A DNA stretch of 5,451 nucleotides. It comes from a virus (Duplodnaviria > Heunggongvirae > Uroviricota > Caudoviricetes). Location: the IMG/VR virus record IMGVR_UViG_2541047751_000012. One strand, written 5' to 3'. Position numbers and translations under genes: made by a program. This document shows positions 1 through 5,451 of this stretch, in pieces (position 1 is the stretch's first letter; every line of letters begins with the position of its first letter). Below the pieces are notes generated by a model. It was not told where the DNA came from. It was given only the letters and a program-made list of their open reading frames with translations, and did no database searches.

Positions 1-1143
1 CTATGCTGTTTTGATATCTACGATAATCCAGTCTTTACCACGATCATCATTGTATCGGTCGGTCATTTTTCTGGATTTATGACCTAACAACTTTTGCGTA
101 TCCAGACCCTGTTCCCGATATAACCGTTCTGACAGAGATCGCTGCTCATGAAATGTGGGCGCAGTTCCTGGCTCCCATTTTATGCCACATTTTTCCCTGG
201 CCTTTTTAAAAGCCGTTGTAAGAGTATTTGCAGACACCTGGTCTCCTCTGTTTGCTTGAGAGGTAGTGTGACGGTAATGGACCAGATATTTACTAACAAC
301 AGCATCCCTGCACTGAGATATAACTTCACGAAGGGTAATATTCAGAGCATCGCATTTCAGGTTAAGCGGAATAGCAAGTTTTGAACCGGTTTTTTCCTGA
401 GTAATGTGCAACATGTCGTCCCAGATATCAGAGAATTTCAAATTGCAGATATCGCCTAAACGTTGTCCAGTGACAAGAGCAAGTAGCATCCCGCATTTTA
501 AATAGGGCTGCCGTCTGCTTACGCTGTCAAATATTGCCTGCCATTCGGGCAGTGATAATCTTTGGCGGTTTACTCGATTTCGCGGTTGTTTTGTTGCCTG
601 CGCTGGGTTAAATCCTGGCGGAACATGTCCTGCGTGTTGTGCTTCTTTGAAGACGTCGATCAACACCATTCTCACGACTTGCGCCATCCTGTTATGACCT
701 TCAGCCTTTACAGCATCAATTATTTCGGCAATATCAAGTGCGGTAATATCCTTGAGGTGTTGCATTCCACAATGCTCACGGAAAAGACGAATGGGTTTGC
801 CTTTTTGCCGATAGGAGTTGGGTCTTAGTTCATTATGTTGCAGCCTGTCCTCCTGGATAGAAATATATTTATCAAGCCATTCTGTCACCGTAATGTCTGA
901 GCGCCTGCCTTTCATTCTTTCTAGACGCTCATTGACGCTTAATATTTGTCGGGTACGTTGTTCAGCAATAATGGTATTTGCTTCAGTAGCAACTTGTTTT
1001 GCTTCATTCTCATCAGTTCCTAAGCTATGAAAACGACCGGATAGTGGATGTTTGTATTGCCAATATACCTTTCCGGTTCGCTTATCTAATTTGCAATATA
1101 AATTGGGTATAGAGATTTTGTGAGATCGGGGTCTAGCAGCCAT
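1..1143 (-). CDS. int: Lambda-family tyrosine integrase (site-specific recombinase), 380 aa, apparently full length
   Basis: Complete ORF with its stop at the window edge (1-3). The translation tracks lambda Int as I recall it: N-terminal arm-binding region (MAARPRSHK...PNLY vs lambda MGRRRSHERRDLPPNLY) and a C-terminal catalytic region with VTGQRLGD, PTFHEQRSLSERLY and LLGHKS...DRYNDDRGKDW. The start overlaps the 3' end of the upstream excisionase gene by 11 nt. Confidence 0.93.
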   Translation of the reverse strand: MAARPRSHKISIPNLYCKLDKRTGKVYWQYKHPLSGRFHSLGTDENEAKQVATEANTIIAEQRTRQILSVNERLERMKGRRSDITVTEWLDKYISIQEDRLQHNELRPNSYRQKGKPIRLFREHCGMQHLKDITALDIAEIIDAVKAEGHNRMAQVVRMVLIDVFKEAQHAGHVPPGFNPAQATKQPRNRVNRQRLSLPEWQAIFDSVSRRQPYLKCGMLLALVTGQRLGDICNLKFSDIWDDMLHITQEKTGSKLAIPLNLKCDALNITLREVISQCRDAVVSKYLVHYRHTTSQANRGDQVSANTLTTAFKKAREKCGIKWEPGTAPTFHEQRSLSERLYREQGLDTQKLLGHKSRKMTDRYNDDRGKDWIIVDIKTA

Positions 1144-1369
1144 CAGCGATTATCCGTTGGAGTTTTGGGTTTGCGTTTATTGGGAGTTGCGGTTCTGCAA
1201 GCGTTCCTACAAAACGGGAATTTCGGTCAATCATCCAGTAGCGACCAACTTTTATAGCGGGTGGGGCCATCATTTTCCCTTGCGCGTATTTTTTCAGAAC
1301 TCGCTCACTTGGTGCTAAGTCCCCAAATTCTTCTTTAGCCCAGTCCTGTAAAGTGATTAGTCGAGACAT
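1133..1369 (-). CDS. xis: Excisionase (Xis-like recombination directionality factor), 78 aa
   Basis: Small ORF immediately upstream of int, overlapping it by 11 nt as in lambda xis-int. Strong Shine-Dalgarno (AAGAGGAGGA) 4-5 nt before the ATG. The N-terminus (MSRLITLQDW) resembles the lambda Xis start (..LTLQEW..). Family assignment is from position and partial recall. Confidence 0.8.
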   Translation of the reverse strand: MSRLITLQDWAKEEFGDLAPSERVLKKYAQGKMMAPPAIKVGRYWMIDRNSRFVGTLAEPQLPINANPKLQRIIADGC

Positions 1370-1508
1370 TTGTCCTCCTCTTAGCTGCTGAGGGAGTTTG
1401 TGACCGATATATCTGACATGATATTAAGCTCATGGCAGGTACATCTCTTGACTGGTCATAGAGATAAATTTAATGCTGAGAAATGCAGTATTGAATTTAT
1501 CAATTTTT

Positions 1509-1748
1509 CTATTTCCTGCGTATGGCACGTAACTTCTTAATGTGTTCTGCTGTTTCGATCTCTTCAGCTATCCGATCTGCGTCAGCTTTATTCACAGGTT
1601 CAAAGTCATGATTAAAGCGGAACATGCTGGCGATACATGTTCTGCCTTTTCGGATGTAGTGAACTTTGTTGTGAGTGGAACGCAGGATTTTGCAGGGAGT
1701 GCCGTGGTGGTCGACGTACCAGGTGTTAGGGTAAATCACTCTGAACAT
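1509..1748 (-). CDS. Small prophage accessory protein, 79 aa, function unknown (possibly a DUF4222-type protein; uncertain)
   Basis: ORF with a plausible AAGG Shine-Dalgarno 6 nt before the ATG, same strand as the operon, basic C-terminal tail. Sits upstream of xis, where lambdoid phages carry small accessory genes. The family name is an unverified recollection. Confidence 0.6.
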   Translation of the reverse strand: MFRVIYPNTWYVDHHGTPCKILRSTHNKVHYIRKGRTCIASMFRFNHDFEPVNKADADRIAEEIETAEHIKKLRAIRRK

Positions 1749-1773
1749 TCTTGACCTTGTGTTGTGCGGATTG

Positions 1774-2058
1774 TTATTCAGTGCCGATATTTACCTTTAT
1801 CGCGTATACCTTTACCGGTTTATCACCGAAGTGCGGATGTGTGATTGTCTTCACTTCATATCCGTCATACGGAACATCAACTCTGCGGCTGGAATCGTCG
1901 CGCTTCGGATATCCCTTTGTGATAATCAGGCGGTCATGCTTACGGTTAACGAGGCGCTTTTTCCAGTAGTCATTACACAGGCGATACTCTTCCGTTTTCT
2001 CTCCGCGAATCATGGCATCGAAGTATTCACCTTTAACGGCAAGTTGCAGGTTAGCCAC
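1774..2058 (-). CDS. Small protein with an ASCH/PUA-like (DUF3850-like) N-terminal signature, 94 aa if started at the GTG
   Basis: The six-frame ORF extends to 2142 but would overlap the upstream gene by about 90 nt. An in-frame GTG at 2058-2056 is preceded by a perfect AAGGAG with 6-nt spacing and overlaps the upstream stop by 8 nt. The segment EYFDAMIRGEKTEEYRLCNDYW fits the ASCH-like pattern (xYFxAvxxGxKxxExR) as I remember it. Confidence 0.55.
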   Translation of the reverse strand: MANLQLAVKGEYFDAMIRGEKTEEYRLCNDYWKKRLVNRKHDRLIITKGYPKRDDSSRRVDVPYDGYEVKTITHPHFGDKPVKVYAIKVNIGTE

Positions 2059-2791
2059 GGTTAACTCCTTGCTGTGTGGCGTCGAGTAATAAATCCCACA
2101 ACCGCTGAGAGCAATTTCCGCATGTACAGCGTTGACCCACAACGTTTATCGCGTTGCTGATTTCCGGCGTTACCTGTTTAGGAACCATAACCCAACCATC
2201 CGGAGTTACCGGAAGCGAGAACGGCAGCACATCTCTGTGAACAAGTTTTTGCTGTGACAGGTTATCCAGAACTTTCTGTACTGCTGCATCACCGAATACA
2301 CCAAGCGCATCTGCCATAACTCCTACAACCTGATAAGCCTCAGCGCATACCGTGGATAAACCATCCGGAATTACCGGAGAGTTGCCGGGTTCTTTAATGT
2401 GCAAGCGAGGCTCACCATCTTTTGGCTCAGGCCACTGGCGCTCCATGTTGATCTTCAATTTATCTTCCATAGCAACGGTAATTTCAGCATCGCTGATGCC
2501 AGCACGGCGCTGTGCATCCCACAACAGAAACTGCATATCAGCCCACTCGCTAAGATCGTCTGGTTCGGCTGCGGCTTCCAGTGCCTCTTTTGAGAGGTGT
2601 TTCAGTGGACCAATGGGGCCAACGCAGCCAAATGTGGAGTCAGACCATTTGGCATGCTCGTGGCGAATCTGTTCGCGTTCCAGTGATGCCAGTGCAATTC
2701 GTGCTAGTTCCATTTGTTCGCCACGAGTAAGCCCGTTTTCAAGCGGATTTTTAATGAACAATTCAATACGTTCTTTGGTAATAGTGGTCAT
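2051..2791 (-). CDS. Modular prophage protein of unknown function, 246 aa; paralog of the 2999-3778 gene
   Basis: Long ORF with a GAGGA Shine-Dalgarno. Its ATG overlaps the stop of the upstream small gene (ATGA). It shares an N-terminal region (..ELARIALASLEREQ vs ..AYEIALASLEENP) and an NSPVIP motif with the 2999-3778 product. It also contains an internal repeat, PVIPDGL / PVTPDGW. Confidence 0.75.
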   Translation of the reverse strand: MTTITKERIELFIKNPLENGLTRGEQMELARIALASLEREQIRHEHAKWSDSTFGCVGPIGPLKHLSKEALEAAAEPDDLSEWADMQFLLWDAQRRAGISDAEITVAMEDKLKINMERQWPEPKDGEPRLHIKEPGNSPVIPDGLSTVCAEAYQVVGVMADALGVFGDAAVQKVLDNLSQQKLVHRDVLPFSLPVTPDGWVMVPKQVTPEISNAINVVGQRCTCGNCSQRLWDLLLDATQQGVNRG

Positions 2792-2997
2792 GTGTTAATC
2801 CTCAAAACTTTATGCCCGGGCGCAAAAGTACGTGTTTTGTCTTTGCTTATTCGCCACCCGTCTTTACGGGCCTCTTTTGCACAACCAGACCATGACGTAC
2901 CGATATACTCACCGAAGTCTGGCACTGGATATACACCTTCCGTACACTGGCGACAATCACAATAGAGATGCATGGTGTAACTTGCGGCAATAGCCAT
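2788..2997 (-). CDS. Small Cys-rich protein, 69 aa, putative zinc ribbon; function unknown
   Basis: The six-frame ORF reaches 3039, but that would overlap the upstream gene. The ATG at 2997-2995 lies 1 nt after the upstream stop with AAGAGAG just upstream. The product (MAIAASYTMHLYCDCRQC...SGC...) has a CxCxxC cluster plus one more Cys. Its stop overlaps the next gene's ATG (ATGA). Confidence 0.55.
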   Translation of the reverse strand: MAIAASYTMHLYCDCRQCTEGVYPVPDFGEYIGTSWSGCAKEARKDGWRISKDKTRTFAPGHKVLRINT

Positions 2998-2998
2998 A

Positions 2999-3778
2999 TC
3001 ACTCTCTTTTTCCCTGAAGCATGGCAGCGTGGCAGGCATCCTCTACGCCCTTAACTGCATCTGCGCAGTAGTTATAGCGATTGCATTCCACTAACTTCTG
3101 CCTGAGATTTTCAATTGCTTGCGCGACATCAGCCTGTATTACAGGAACTGGCGGAACGGCTGTCTGCTGCTCTCGAACGTCATTAGTCGCTATCGGTTCT
3201 GCTGCCAACTGACTGGCATATTTGTTAATGGTAACGATAAGCTCTTGCTCAGCCTCATCCAGACAATCACCGATACCTCGCCTGTCGCCGTCAAAATCAT
3301 CGAAATCAGCACGAACTCTGGCAAATTTCAGGATTGCGGACAACACCTCACCAGGAATTACCGGAGAGTTGGTTGACGTTTCCGAAATTTCCCGAAAATT
3401 ATTGGTTGACGAATTCGCGTTTTCCCGAAAGTTTCCGGCATGAAGCATAGCCGCGCGGCAGGCGTTCCAGCCTTCATCAAAACCGACTATGCCATTATTT
3501 AAAGTCGGACGAGCATCTGGCACCACCGGCACTGGCTTGGCTATATATAGCGGCTGAACATACCAACCCTTTGATAACCAACTGTCAGCAATGTTTTTAC
3601 TCCTCGTTATTGCCGGAATACCTAAGCCATTGTCTGAATGCAGCCATGCCACCGGATTCTCTTCCAGCGATGCCAGAGCAATTTCATAAGCCCGGCGCTC
3701 AACATTGTCTCGCACATCCAAACTGCTGATACGCTCTTTGATTTCTTTAATCAGTTCTTTGTCGGTAAAAGTGCTCAT
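2999..3778 (-). CDS. Modular prophage protein of unknown function, 259 aa; paralog of the 2051-2791 gene; contains an 11-aa tandem repeat
   Basis: The six-frame ORF starts at 3799, but the ATG at 3778-3776 (MSTFTDKELIK...) has a GGAGA Shine-Dalgarno at about 6 nt and sits 1 nt after the Ea22-like stop. It shares the N-terminal helix and the NSPVIP motif with the 2051-2791 product, with an 18-nt identical DNA core. It carries the internal repeat NFRENANSSTN / NFREISETSTN. Confidence 0.75.
   Translation of the reverse strand: MSTFTDKELIKEIKERISSLDVRDNVERRAYEIALASLEENPVAWLHSDNGLGIPAITRSKNIADSWLSKGWYVQPLYIAKPVPVVPDARPTLNNGIVGFDEGWNACRAAMLHAGNFRENANSSTNNFREISETSTNSPVIPGEVLSAILKFARVRADFDDFDGDRRGIGDCLDEAEQELIVTINKYASQLAAEPIATNDVREQQTAVPPVPVIQADVAQAIENLRQKLVECNRYNYCADAVKGVEDACHAAMLQGKRE
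3369..3434 (-). repeat. Two-copy imperfect 33-bp tandem repeat inside the 2999-3778 CDS
   Basis: ttggttgacgtttccgaaatttcccgaaaatta versus ttggttgacgaattcgcgttttcccgaaagttt, about 24/33 identical and in frame (11 codons each), encoding NFRENANSSTN / NFREISETSTN on the minus strand. Confidence 0.7.
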
Positions 3779-3779
3779 A

Positions 3780-4544
3780 TCAATCTCCATTGGTATCAAT
3801 GTTTACAGCCTGACAAGACTCTTTGAGCACCCAGTCAATAGCGTCTTTCCATGCCTCTGTTTCGACTGGTGGATTTTCACGCTTAACCTGTTCATAGAAG
3901 CGCACTGCTTTAACCAGTCCTTCCGGTACTACTGGTGATGGCTGTTTAGCTTCTAAATCAGCAATTCTGTCAACCACGGCATCGACAGCATCTGAAAAGC
4001 CGAACCAGTTGCTCCACTCCGGCTCATCCCCGGTTGCTGCAAAGTACATATCTGCTAAAGCAGATTCAGCATGGTCACGCTCGTTAATGAGTTGCTCTTC
4101 GCTTTTCTCCAGTTCAGCAATACGCTTACCCCCATCCGAGATAACACCTTCGTAATACTCACGCTGCTCGTTGAGTTTTGATTTTGTCTCCTCAAGCTCA
4201 ACTCTCAGCTTCCCAACAGTAAGAGCAATATCCTCGTTCTCCTGGTCGCGGCGTTTTATGTATTGCTGGTTTCTTTCCCGTTCATCCAGCAGTGCCAGCA
4301 CAGTAGCCGGATTGGCTGCGGCGATGAATTCAGCATTGGCCTGCTGTTCCATTTGGAAATCTTCATCGAAACCGCTTTCTGGATGCGCTCCTTCAATTCT
4401 GCAAATGGGAATATATCCAGCAACTTCACGATGAATTAGCGCATAATCACCATCAAATCGGCTCTCTCCATATTCGAGCGACCACTCACCACACGTTGCT
4501 TTTTCTGCCGCTTCACGCAGTGCCTGATAGTTAATTTCGCTCAC
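3780..4544 (-). CDS. Ead/Ea22-like coiled-coil protein, 254 aa
   Basis: Long ORF whose N-terminus (MSEINYQALREAAEKATCGEWS) matches my recollection of Ea22-like prophage proteins, with a central charged, coiled-coil-like region (ELEETKSKLNEQREYYE...ELEKSEEQL). The start codon is GTG (4544-4542), overlapping the upstream TraR-like stop (GTGA), with GAGAGG upstream. Confidence 0.8.
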   Translation of the reverse strand: MSEINYQALREAAEKATCGEWSLEYGESRFDGDYALIHREVAGYIPICRIEGAHPESGFDEDFQMEQQANAEFIAAANPATVLALLDERERNQQYIKRRDQENEDIALTVGKLRVELEETKSKLNEQREYYEGVISDGGKRIAELEKSEEQLINERDHAESALADMYFAATGDEPEWSNWFGFSDAVDAVVDRIADLEAKQPSPVVPEGLVKAVRFYEQVKRENPPVETEAWKDAIDWVLKESCQAVNIDTNGD

Positions 4545-4762
4545 TTCGAACCTCTCTGTTTACTGATAAGCTCCAGATCCTCCTGGCAACTTGCACAAGT
4601 CCGACAACCCTGAACGACCAGGCGTCTTCGTTCATCTATGGGATCGCCACACTCACAACAATGAGTGGCGGATATAGTCTGGTAGTTCAGACGACGCATT
4701 TTTATTGCTGTATTGCGCTGTAATTCTTCAATTTCTGATGCTGAATCAATGATGTCCGCCAT
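4541..4762 (-). CDS. TraR/DksA-family C4 zinc-finger protein (lambda orf73-like), 73 aa
   Basis: The translation has the TraR-type motif C-x2-C-x14-C-x2-C (..CCECGDPIDERRRLVVQGCRTCASCQ..), which aligns by eye with F-plasmid TraR (..CEACGNPIPEARR...CVECQ..). The size and the position in the early-left region are consistent with lambda orf73. Confidence 0.85.
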   Translation of the reverse strand: MADIIDSASEIEELQRNTAIKMRRLNYQTISATHCCECGDPIDERRRLVVQGCRTCASCQEDLELISKQRGSK

Positions 4763-4810
4763 CTTTCATTAATCCCTGAATTGTTGGTTAATACGCTTGA
4801 GGGTGAATGC

Positions 4811-4845
4811 GAATAATAAAAAAGGAGCCTGTAGCTCCCTGATGA
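4811..4845 (-). terminator. Putative Rho-independent terminator on the minus strand
   Basis: On the minus strand: AGGGAGC-tacag-GCUCC(uu) hairpin (5 G/C-rich pairs plus possible G-U and A-U) followed directly by UUUUUUAUUAUU. On the plus strand the hairpin is preceded by an A-run instead, so it is orientation-specific to the operon direction. Located 16-50 nt after the stop of the 4861 gene. Confidence 0.5.
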
Positions 4846-4860
4846 TTTTGCTTTTCATGT

Positions 4861-5076
4861 TCACCGTTCCTTAAAGACGCCGTTTAACATGCCGATCGCC
4901 AGGCTTAAATGAGTCGGTGTGAATCCCATCAGCGTTACCGTTTCGCGGTGCTTCTTTAGTACGCTACGGCAAATGTCATCGACGTTTTTATCCGGAAACT
5001 GCTGTCTGGCTTTTTTGATTTCAGAATTAGCCTGACGGGCAATGCTGCGAAGGGCGTTTTCTTGCTGAGGTGTCAC
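4861..5076 (-). CDS. Hypothetical small phage protein; 71 aa if started at GTG 5076, or 93 aa if started at ATG 5142
   Basis: The ORF is clear from 4861; the start is ambiguous. The ATG at 5142 has no Shine-Dalgarno and gives a Cys-rich, odd-looking N-terminus (MHFSGSGLHILCAYACRHGACS). The GTG at 5076-5074 overlaps the stop of a 27-aa ORF (GTGA), matching the coupling pattern of the rest of the operon. The C-terminal 70 aa look like a normal soluble protein; I do not recognise the family. Confidence 0.5.
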   Translation of the reverse strand: MTPQQENALRSIARQANSEIKKARQQFPDKNVDDICRSVLKKHRETVTLMGFTPTHLSLAIGMLNGVFKER

Positions 5077-5156
5077 TGAACAAGCCCCATGTCGGCAAGC
5101 ATAAGCACACAGAATATGAAGCCCGCTGCCAGAAAAATGCATTCAGTGGTTGTCAT
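5073..5156 (-). CDS. Candidate 27-aa hydrophobic small protein (MTTTECIFLAAGFIFCVLMLADMGLVQ)
   Basis: Short ORF missing from the six-frame track. Its ATG (5156-5154) overlaps the TGA of the truncated upstream reading frame (ATGA) and its TGA overlaps the GTG of the next gene (GTGA). The product is dominated by one hydrophobic stretch of transmembrane length. No strong Shine-Dalgarno (GAGAGA at about 6-7 nt). Confidence 0.25.
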   Translation of the reverse strand: MTTTECIFLAAGFIFCVLMLADMGLVQ

Positions 5157-5241
5157 ACCTGGTCTCTCTCATCTGCTTCTGCTTTCGCCACCATCATTTC
5201 CAGCTTTTGTGAAAGGGATGTGGCTAACGTATGAAATTCTT
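5153..5241 (-). pseudogene. 3' remnant (about 28 codons) of a minus-strand phage gene, apparently truncated by the IS insertion
   Basis: An open frame (..EFHTLATSLSQKLEMMVAKAEADERDQV*) runs from the IS boundary to a TGA at 5155-5153, with no start codon context at its 5' end. That end abuts the IS left terminus at about 5242. The identity of the disrupted gene is unknown. Confidence 0.3.
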
Positions 5242-5451
5242 TGAACCGCCCCGGGAATCCTGGAGACTAAACTTCCTGAGAAAGAGGTAAACAGGATGAC
5301 TAAAAATACTCGTTTTTCCCCCGAAGTCCGTCAACGGGCAGTCCGTATGGTTCTGGAAAGTCAGAGCGAATATGACTCACAATGGGCGACAATTTGTTCC
5401 ATTGCTCCAAAGATTGGCTGTACGCCGGAGACTCTGCGTGTCTGGGTTCGC
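5242..5451 (+). mobile_element. IS3-family insertion sequence, left end (IS629/IS1203-like from memory); continues beyond the window
   Basis: A terminal sequence TGAACCGCCCCGGGAATCCTGGAGACTAAACTTCC begins at 5242, followed 54 nt later by an orfA-type gene. This matches my recollection of the IS629 left inverted repeat and leader. The change in gene orientation and content at this point is abrupt. Confidence 0.8.
5296..5451 (+). CDS. IS3-family transposase OrfA (helix-turn-helix), N-terminal 52 codons; partial at window end
   Basis: ATG at 5296 preceded by GAAAGAGG at about 8 nt. The translation [52 protein letters not shown] matches the IS629-type OrfA N-terminus as I recall it. Open to the end of the window. 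Confidence 0.85.

Follow-up and report, generated by a model that had tools for sequence, protein, structure and literature searches.

The gene family to which TraR and DksA belong, the structure of its members on RNA polymerase (RNAP) and the function of its phage lambda representative, Orf73, are already known from published work. Indeed, purified lambda Orf73 has been shown to compete with DksA for RNAP and to inhibit the rrnB P1 promoter with a half-maximal inhibitory concentration (IC50) of ~50 nM without guanosine tetraphosphate (ppGpp), rpsT P2 being inhibited as well (Gopalkrishnan et al., 2022; PMC9239242). This activity is abolished by the substitutions D3N and D6N and crippled by D3A/D6A, and the protein complements a dksA null mutant on minimal medium (PMC9239242). 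In vivo, production of Orf73 from the induced pL of a defective prophage causes a more than 3-fold drop in pre-rRNA and slower growth, while wild-type orf73 gives a 3-4 fold higher phage yield after induction (PMC9239242). The thrABC, argI and rpoH P3 promoters are activated weakly if at all, possibly due to two extra cysteines described in this protein (PMC9239242); a review of the exo-xis region lists the same Orf73 hallmarks (PMC8614690). Here, we analysed a homologue of this gene located at 4541..4762, on the minus strand, of a 5,451-nt stretch of DNA (hereafter the window) from a virus of the Caudoviricetes (IMG/VR record IMGVR_UViG_2541047751_000012). It is highly probable that this gene is the orthologue of lambda orf73, within the TraR branch of the DksA/TraR family, and that, although intact, it is mostly silent and merely carried along in a prophage remnant at icd.

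The limits 4541..4762 are exactly those of an ATG-to-TGA open reading frame (ORF) of 73 codons plus TGA, whose product is MADIIDSASEIEELQRNTAIKMRRLNYQTISATHCCECGDPIDERRRLVVQGCRTCASCQEDLELISKQRGSK. The initial annotation gave no strand for this gene; the ORF list contains no overlapping plus-strand ORF of at least 30 amino acids (aa) over 4541..4762, and a gene on the opposite strand is thereby ruled out. The protein is identical to phage lambda Orf73 at 71 of 73 residues (97%), the sole differences, H27Y and A29T, being held within codons 27-29 (Y-Q-T; 4676..4684, minus strand). These two positions are not conserved, since lambda Orf73 and F TraR also differ there (A29 and G31 in TraR). At the DNA level, ten sites distinguish the window gene from lambda orf73, eight of them synonymous and two non-synonymous, corresponding to a synonymous rate (dS) of 0.19 and a non-synonymous rate (dN) of 0.012; the resulting dN/dS of 0.06 clearly indicates that purifying selection acts on this reading frame. 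A chance ORF is ruled out by this ratio together with the identity to lambda Orf73 and the matches to the PF01258 and phrog_54 profiles described below. The gene is thus confirmed as a real gene and as an orthologue of lambda orf73, and the assignment is settled because the identity of 97% is to a biochemically characterised protein. In lambda itself, the Orf73 of the literature corresponds to an unannotated 73-codon ORF between ea22 and orf61 (minus strand, 2893..3114 of the lambda locus L002), while RefSeq names the product of DNA identical to the window gene 'TraR/DksA family transcriptional regulator' (WP_000763378.1).

Regarding the sequence motifs, the near-identity to lambda Orf73 extends over the full length and includes cysteines 36 and 53. 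Six cysteines are present (35, 36, 38, 53, 56 and 59), of which C35, C38, C56 and C59 correspond in alignment to those of TraR and are the ligands of a CxxC-x17-CxxC zinc finger (codons 35-59; 4586..4660, minus strand), C36 and C53 forming the extra pair. Codons 3-8 (4739..4756, minus strand) encode DIIDSA, recognised by motif search and by alignment to F TraR as the DxxDxA motif that in TraR extends to RNAP's active-site region (PMC9239242). R46 and R47 (4622..4627, minus strand) align with TraR R48 and R49, which contact the rim helices and beta' Si3, respectively (PMC9239242). In a three-way MAFFT alignment of the window protein, lambda Orf73 and F TraR, the invariant set includes D3, D6, A8, C35, C38, C56, C59, E44, R46 and R47; the C-terminal residues 60-73 are also present, with E64 aligned to TraR E66. 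The protein matched Pfam PF01258 (zf-dskA_traR) with 35.7 bits for a gathering score of 24.9, and PHROG phrog_54, 'DksA-like zinc-finger protein', over its full length (E 1.5e-24). Moreover, a phmmer search against the PDB aligned residues 1-64 with residues 1-66 of TraR (5w1s_M, E 4.5e-5; also 6n57_M). A small size of 73 aa, a near end-to-end alignment with TraR and the absence of the DksA coiled coil place the protein in the TraR branch; DksA proper has about 150 aa and a coiled coil bearing its acidic tip, and here a single N-terminal helix carries the acidic motif, at residues 3-8. The initial annotation had proposed a TraR/DksA-type zinc-finger protein from the Cys4 motif and the size, to be checked through the four zinc ligands in alignments to F TraR and lambda Orf73, and it had set the absence of the acidic N-terminal residues as a refutation: all these features were found, and its identification is borne out.

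Given its 97% identity to lambda Orf73, the window protein would be expected to bind the secondary channel of RNAP and to regulate transcription initiation without ppGpp. In the mechanism that we propose, the N-terminal helix would enter the channel, bringing D3, D6 and A8 to the active-site region, the globular domain with its Zn(Cys4) and with R46 and R47 would dock onto the rim helices and beta' Si3, and the C-terminal helix would touch beta Si1. Open complexes at rRNA and ribosomal-protein promoters would be destabilised with no requirement for ppGpp, and host resources would be diverted during lytic growth, leading to an increased burst. The effects on rRNA promoters and the complementation of a dksA mutant, which the initial annotation had suggested assaying, are in fact published for lambda Orf73 (PMC9239242), a protein different at 2 of 73 residues, both at non-conserved positions. 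They support one part of the proposal that such proteins mimic the combined effect of DksA and ppGpp: inhibition stands, as seen with lambda Orf73 on rRNA and ribosomal-protein promoters, whereas thrABC, argI and rpoH P3 are activated weakly if at all. Orf73 hence reproduces the inhibitory half of the DksA/ppGpp effect, the activating half being weak if present at all, and the window protein shares both extra cysteines possibly behind this weak activation.

The window represents the left arm of a lambdoid prophage, with all its genes oriented leftward, and the order orf63, orf61, orf73 and ea22, between exo and xis/int, matches the lambda block. The mean column identity to lambda is 92%, end gaps counted, over the segment that begins with the orf63 fragment and runs into the start of ea22. 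Upstream of orf73 lies an orf61-like gene (4861..5142, minus strand) of full length, 93 aa, for which RefSeq gives a shorter version of 71 aa. Directly downstream is an ead/Ea22-like gene of 254 aa (3780..4544, minus strand; PF13935 Ead_Ea22, 138 bits), whose GTG start overlaps the TGA stop of orf73 as GTGA (4541..4544, minus strand), as in lambda. Beyond it, the genes overlap or abut as far as a gene for an ASCH protein, in agreement with the coupled arrangement proposed initially. Of the intact relatives, phage PhiR57_1 is base-identical to the window over 1-3470 and differs by one base over 3570-5242; its upstream genes comprise orf60a, exo, bet, gam, kil, cIII, ea10, ral, N, cI and cro, and orf73 therefore sits in the middle of the pL operon in a complete phage. 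In such a phage, orf73 would be expressed in the delayed-early phase, as part of the pL operon antiterminated by N (exo, orf60a, orf63, orf61, orf73, ea22 ... xis, int). The proposal that orf73 heads an operon consequently needs qualification: it is the first gene after a putative terminator hairpin, but exo, orf60a, orf63 and orf61 precede it in intact relatives.

At the window locus, this operon is interrupted by an insertion sequence (IS). The left end of an IS3-family element occupies 5242..5451 (plus strand), with its terminal repeat TGAACCGCCCCGGG and the ATG of its transposase orfA at 5296, facing away from orf73; the transposase is annotated with a programmed frameshift, and both the junction and the inverted terminal repeat were identified. 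The element cuts orf63 (DUF1382), of which a 3' fragment is left at 5153..5241 (minus strand): its alignment to lambda orf63 ends at the IS junction, and the annotation of Escherichia coli SFAD3 describes it as a pseudogene 'missing N-terminus'. SFAD3 is the closest complete genome (100% identity), and its prophage element adjoins icd, int and xis being at the left end of the remnant, beside icd. Beyond the IS (11268..12580 of locus L001), SFAD3 holds two small ORFs, sitDCBA, one further ORF and a duplicated icd 3' fragment, with no sequence from the first 13.9 kb of PhiR57_1 and no exo, N, pL or cI. As this phage sequence is missing past the IS and there is no target-site duplication at its flanks in SFAD3, an IS-associated deletion is indicated, which would have removed the part of the phage carrying pL, N, cI, replication and lysis functions in the closest complete genomes. 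The same arrangement, with at least 80% of the window covered, was found in 86 complete genomes, including CFT073-type strains. Of note, in SFAD3 the segment from int through orf61 has been left joined to a sitABCD iron/manganese transporter island that ends in the duplicated icd fragment. Judged from the IS at 5242 and from SFAD3, the pL and N antitermination expected of a lambda orthologue would thus not be retained. Expression of orf73 at the window locus is doubtful, because the IS cuts the prophage at 5242 and pL, N and cI are gone in the closest complete genomes. The initial annotation had also suggested that this gene could reprogram host transcription from the prophage; the RNAP-binding protein it had in mind is encoded, but in what the nearest genomes show to be a truncated remnant lacking pL and N, the presence of orf73 does not imply that host transcription is reprogrammed.

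Several points weigh against reading the window gene as a lambda-type orf73 of the TraR branch that is carried mostly silently in a remnant. Among the NCBIfam models, the cutoff of TIGR02419 (TraR subfamily) was narrowly missed (54.2 for 59.7) and that of NF010268 (F-TraR equivalog) was missed by far (27.7 for 108). AlphaFold2, run on the single sequence without alignment, gave a model too poor for a fold search, with a predicted local distance difference test (pLDDT) score of 53.7 and a predicted template modelling (pTM) score of 0.26. Experiments are known only for lambda Orf73, from which the Y27/T29 allele differs at 2 of 73 residues. Regarding the role in the phage, a discrepancy exists between the Gdansk studies, which describe a pro-lysogenic function and a lower yield, and the increased burst reported in PMC9239242, which also discusses this disagreement. 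Finally, pL, N and cI would be lost at the window locus, assuming that the source genome matches the closest complete genomes, the window itself ending inside the IS. In the single-sequence model, a helix spans residues 57-69 at a pLDDT <50, and a pLDDT of 93 has been given for the AlphaFold model of lambda Orf73 (PMC8614690). Y27 and T29 fall between the N-terminal helix and the zinc finger, in a stretch variable between lambda Orf73 and F TraR. From the NCBIfam scores, F-TraR equivalog status was rejected; on the strength of its sequence, the window protein is a TraR-family member that borders TIGR02419 and is not an F-TraR equivalog.

The disagreement on the phage-level role also underlies a different physiological reading, in which the main function of Orf73 would be to bias the lysis-lysogeny decision or to block the initiation of host replication (the old 'bin' function), and not to raise the burst through the shut-down of rRNA synthesis. 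We consider this rather unlikely, despite the description, in PMC8614690, of a lowered survival and lysogenisation upon orf73 deletion in lambda and Stx (Shiga toxin) phages, and the classification of orf73 and ea22 as pro-lysogenic in the same review. Similarly, orf73, ea22, ea8.5 and orf55 were earlier implicated in the block of host replication initiation, according to work cited in PMC9239242. However, the effect on dnaA transcription is weak (IC50 of 420 nM to 1.7 uM, versus ~50 nM for rrnB P1), and the non-polar point mutants D3A/D6A lowered phage yield (PMC9239242). Moreover, both roles could follow from one RNAP-binding mechanism, and this alternative hence concerns the physiology and not the molecule.

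Whether orf73 could be transcribed in the remnant depends on its upstream region, in which a terminator-like hairpin, AGGGAGCTACAGGCTCCTT, followed by a T-rich tail, lies at 4812..4840 (minus strand), 60-78 nt upstream of the orf73 ATG. The stem-loop itself covers 4840..4822 on the minus strand and is followed by TTTTATTATT; its stem appears in both the minimum free energy and the centroid folds. The fold energy of the 116-nt intergenic RNA is unremarkable overall (z -0.5), only the local stem-loop being notable. The putative terminator of the initial annotation is present at the sequence level, and the hairpin is identical in lambda, phage 21, PhiR70_1 and 933W. In phiSTEC1589-Stx1c, where Orf73 is just 68.5% identical, the flanks are unrelated and the small ORF described below is missing, the GGAGC/GCTCC stem and the T-run are kept with another loop (locus L007, ~555..585). 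The hairpin thus appears to travel with orf73 as a module boundary, since it is kept in this phage despite an unrelated upstream gene and spacer, and its conservation in so divergent a phage argues for a functional element. A scan of the whole window with Rfam gave no family at the gathering score, and the hairpin is hence not a curated RNA element. Identification with the lambda terminator tL3 was considered and rejected: tL3 of lambda is located just downstream of exo, within orf60a, and not at the hairpin site. A literature search yielded no tL3 coordinates, and the hairpin stays an unnamed putative terminator. In the remnant, without N, the putative terminator would tend to insulate orf73 from read-through.

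The hairpin is spanned by a small ORF of 31 aa, MNMKSKIIRELQAPFLLFAFTLKRINQQFRD (4769..4864, minus strand), which bridges the orf61-like stop and the orf73 start: its own start overlaps the orf61-like stop as GTGA, and its stop lies 6 nt ahead of the orf73 ATG. In lambda, a start codon, ATG, is retained at this position, and the annotation of phage 21 contains a coding sequence of 29 aa. A 31-aa peptide gene of this block, orf2313, is reported from lambda ribosome profiling (PMC8614690) and may correspond to the ORF of the window. Ribosomes crossing the stem could affect termination, or the translation of orf73 could be coupled to that of the small ORF. As for promoters, a standard scan of the minus strand from the IS to orf73 returned no sigma-70-like site of at least 9/12, and a relaxed scan returned one 8/12 site, TTCACC-16-AACAAT, at 4807..4780 (minus strand), downstream of the hairpin. 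This 8/12 site is not evidence of a promoter.

Such a site would nevertheless be the starting point of a domestication scenario, in which orf73 of the remnant would be expressed from its own promoter between the hairpin and the ATG and would act outside the phage cycle, restraining rRNA synthesis independently of ppGpp in the lineages with the icd island. The reading frame is uninterrupted, a remnant sharing this IS junction persists in the 86 complete genomes mentioned above, CFT073-type strains included, and a candidate promoter exists in the appropriate interval. We regard this scenario as very unlikely, however: the candidate is weak and would leave a leader of ~10 nt only, the stricter scan of the minus strand gave nothing, and over 4400-4900 the DNA does not differ from the intact phages ev017 and PhiR57_1, so that selection within the remnant has had no time to become visible. 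Furthermore, constitutive expression would be costly, since Orf73 expression slows growth. A more elaborate form of co-option, with expression from the weak promoter-like site, perhaps coupled to the 31-aa ORF, and with Y27/T29 tuning the activity of a ribosome-synthesis brake, is highly improbable; if it were true, the host would gain a brake on ribosome synthesis independent of ppGpp. Lastly, the idea of a zinc-ribbon protein of the broader DksA/TraR superfamily acting outside the RNAP secondary channel, as YbiI-like paralogues may, is scarcely credible, for although the PF01258 match is confined to the zinc finger (residues 33-64) and the chromosomal E. coli YbiI (2kgo) is the sole non-TraR match in the PDB, the latter covers the zinc finger alone (residues 31-65) whereas the TraR match is full-length (1-64 to 1-66) and includes DxxDxA, and the protein is 97% identical to one shown to bind RNAP.

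Regarding its distribution, 3294 of 5426 complete E. coli genomes contain matches to the 222-nt orf73 gene, a single genome having as many as six; these copies carry the annotation 'TraR/DksA family transcriptional regulator'. By tblastn, homologues were detected in 432 phage records, of which 191 are at least 60% identical, mostly lambdoid and Stx phages, and phages of Klebsiella, Salmonella, Vibrio and Pseudomonas contain homologues that are more distant. The exact protein is also encoded by the Stx1a phage EH2115, and the exact DNA is present in phages ev017 and PhiR57_1. A side observation is that record MW057783.1, 'Campylobacter phage CJLB-4' (48,361 bp), contains at 30315-30533 the gene for an Orf73 with 97.3% identity, matching both the size of lambda and its orf73 coordinate; this record looks lambda-type under a Campylobacter label and possibly reflects contamination. 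As most E. coli genomes already carry the TraR/DksA annotation, the gene matters little as a discovery. The analysis adds a clean assignment as a minus-strand lambda Orf73 orthologue with two substitutions at non-conserved positions, and it strengthens the case that the upstream hairpin is a genuine feature, given that a divergent phage has kept it. It also calls for caution in annotation-based inference, as a copy of a TraR/DksA gene may sit in an IS-truncated remnant.

Further along the window, all on the minus strand, are the integrase (1..1143) and excisionase (1133..1369) genes, then a DUF4222 gene, the ASCH gene, a dATP/dGTP pyrophosphohydrolase gene and two small or mosaic ORFs. The pyrophosphohydrolase gene (DUF550; 2051..2791) is located in the exo-xis variable region and encodes 246 aa with a strong PF04447 domain; its counterpart in SFAD3 is split and includes a pseudogene piece. 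Inside the ORF at 2999..3799 (minus strand), a mosaic patch of ~90 bp (~3474..3560) differs from the otherwise identical PhiR57_1 and SFAD3 and is 26 bp shorter, thereby fusing two ORFs of PhiR57_1 and SFAD3 (a pseudogene in RefSeq) into a single ORF of 266 aa. In 597 complete E. coli genomes, DUF551 genes belonging to other prophages match this patch at ~97%, and none of the best 15 matching complete genomes listed combines it with the rest of the window. For the orf61-like gene, the 61-aa orf61 of lambda and the next 60-codon ORF (3213..3525 of the lambda locus L002) represent a frameshifted form of the intact 93-aa gene of the window, an A7 run in lambda being A6 here; this agrees with PMC8614690, where lambda Orf61 is described as truncated compared with the Stx-phage form of 93 aa.

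Compared with the known systems, the locus is closest to lambda. Lambda Orf73, also named Orf2310, has the same length, the same six cysteines, the same DxxDxA motif and the same E44-x-x-R47-L48 stretch, and the exo-xis region of lambda offers the same neighbours, namely orf63, orf61, the small ORF with its hairpin, orf73 and ea22, with the same GTGA overlap into ea22. By contrast with lambda, the ea22-like gene of the window is longer (254 aa versus 182 aa) and diverges past its N-terminal half, the upstream orf61 is the intact 93-aa form, and the operon is truncated by the IS, with pL and N missing in the nearest complete genome. F TraR (5W1S, 6N57) has 73 aa as well and the same architecture of a single helix, a zinc finger and a helix; D3/D6/A8, CxxC-x17-CxxC and the R-R pair are conserved, and TraR shares the RNAP site and the ppGpp-independent inhibition shown for lambda Orf73. 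However, its identity to the window protein is 34% only, with a two-residue gap in helix 1, and the window protein has two extra cysteines and a leucine replacing lysine after the R-R pair. Promoters activated by TraR are not activated by Orf73, and TraR comes from the tra operon whereas Orf73 comes from a phage early operon. As for DksA, it has in common with Orf73 a C4 zinc finger of the same Pfam family, an acidic DxxDxA tip aimed at the RNAP active site and the site for which the two compete, but it is about twice as long and bears its tip on a coiled coil. Moreover, DksA depends on ppGpp for full activity, whereas Orf73 and TraR work unaided and at lower concentrations (PMC9239242).

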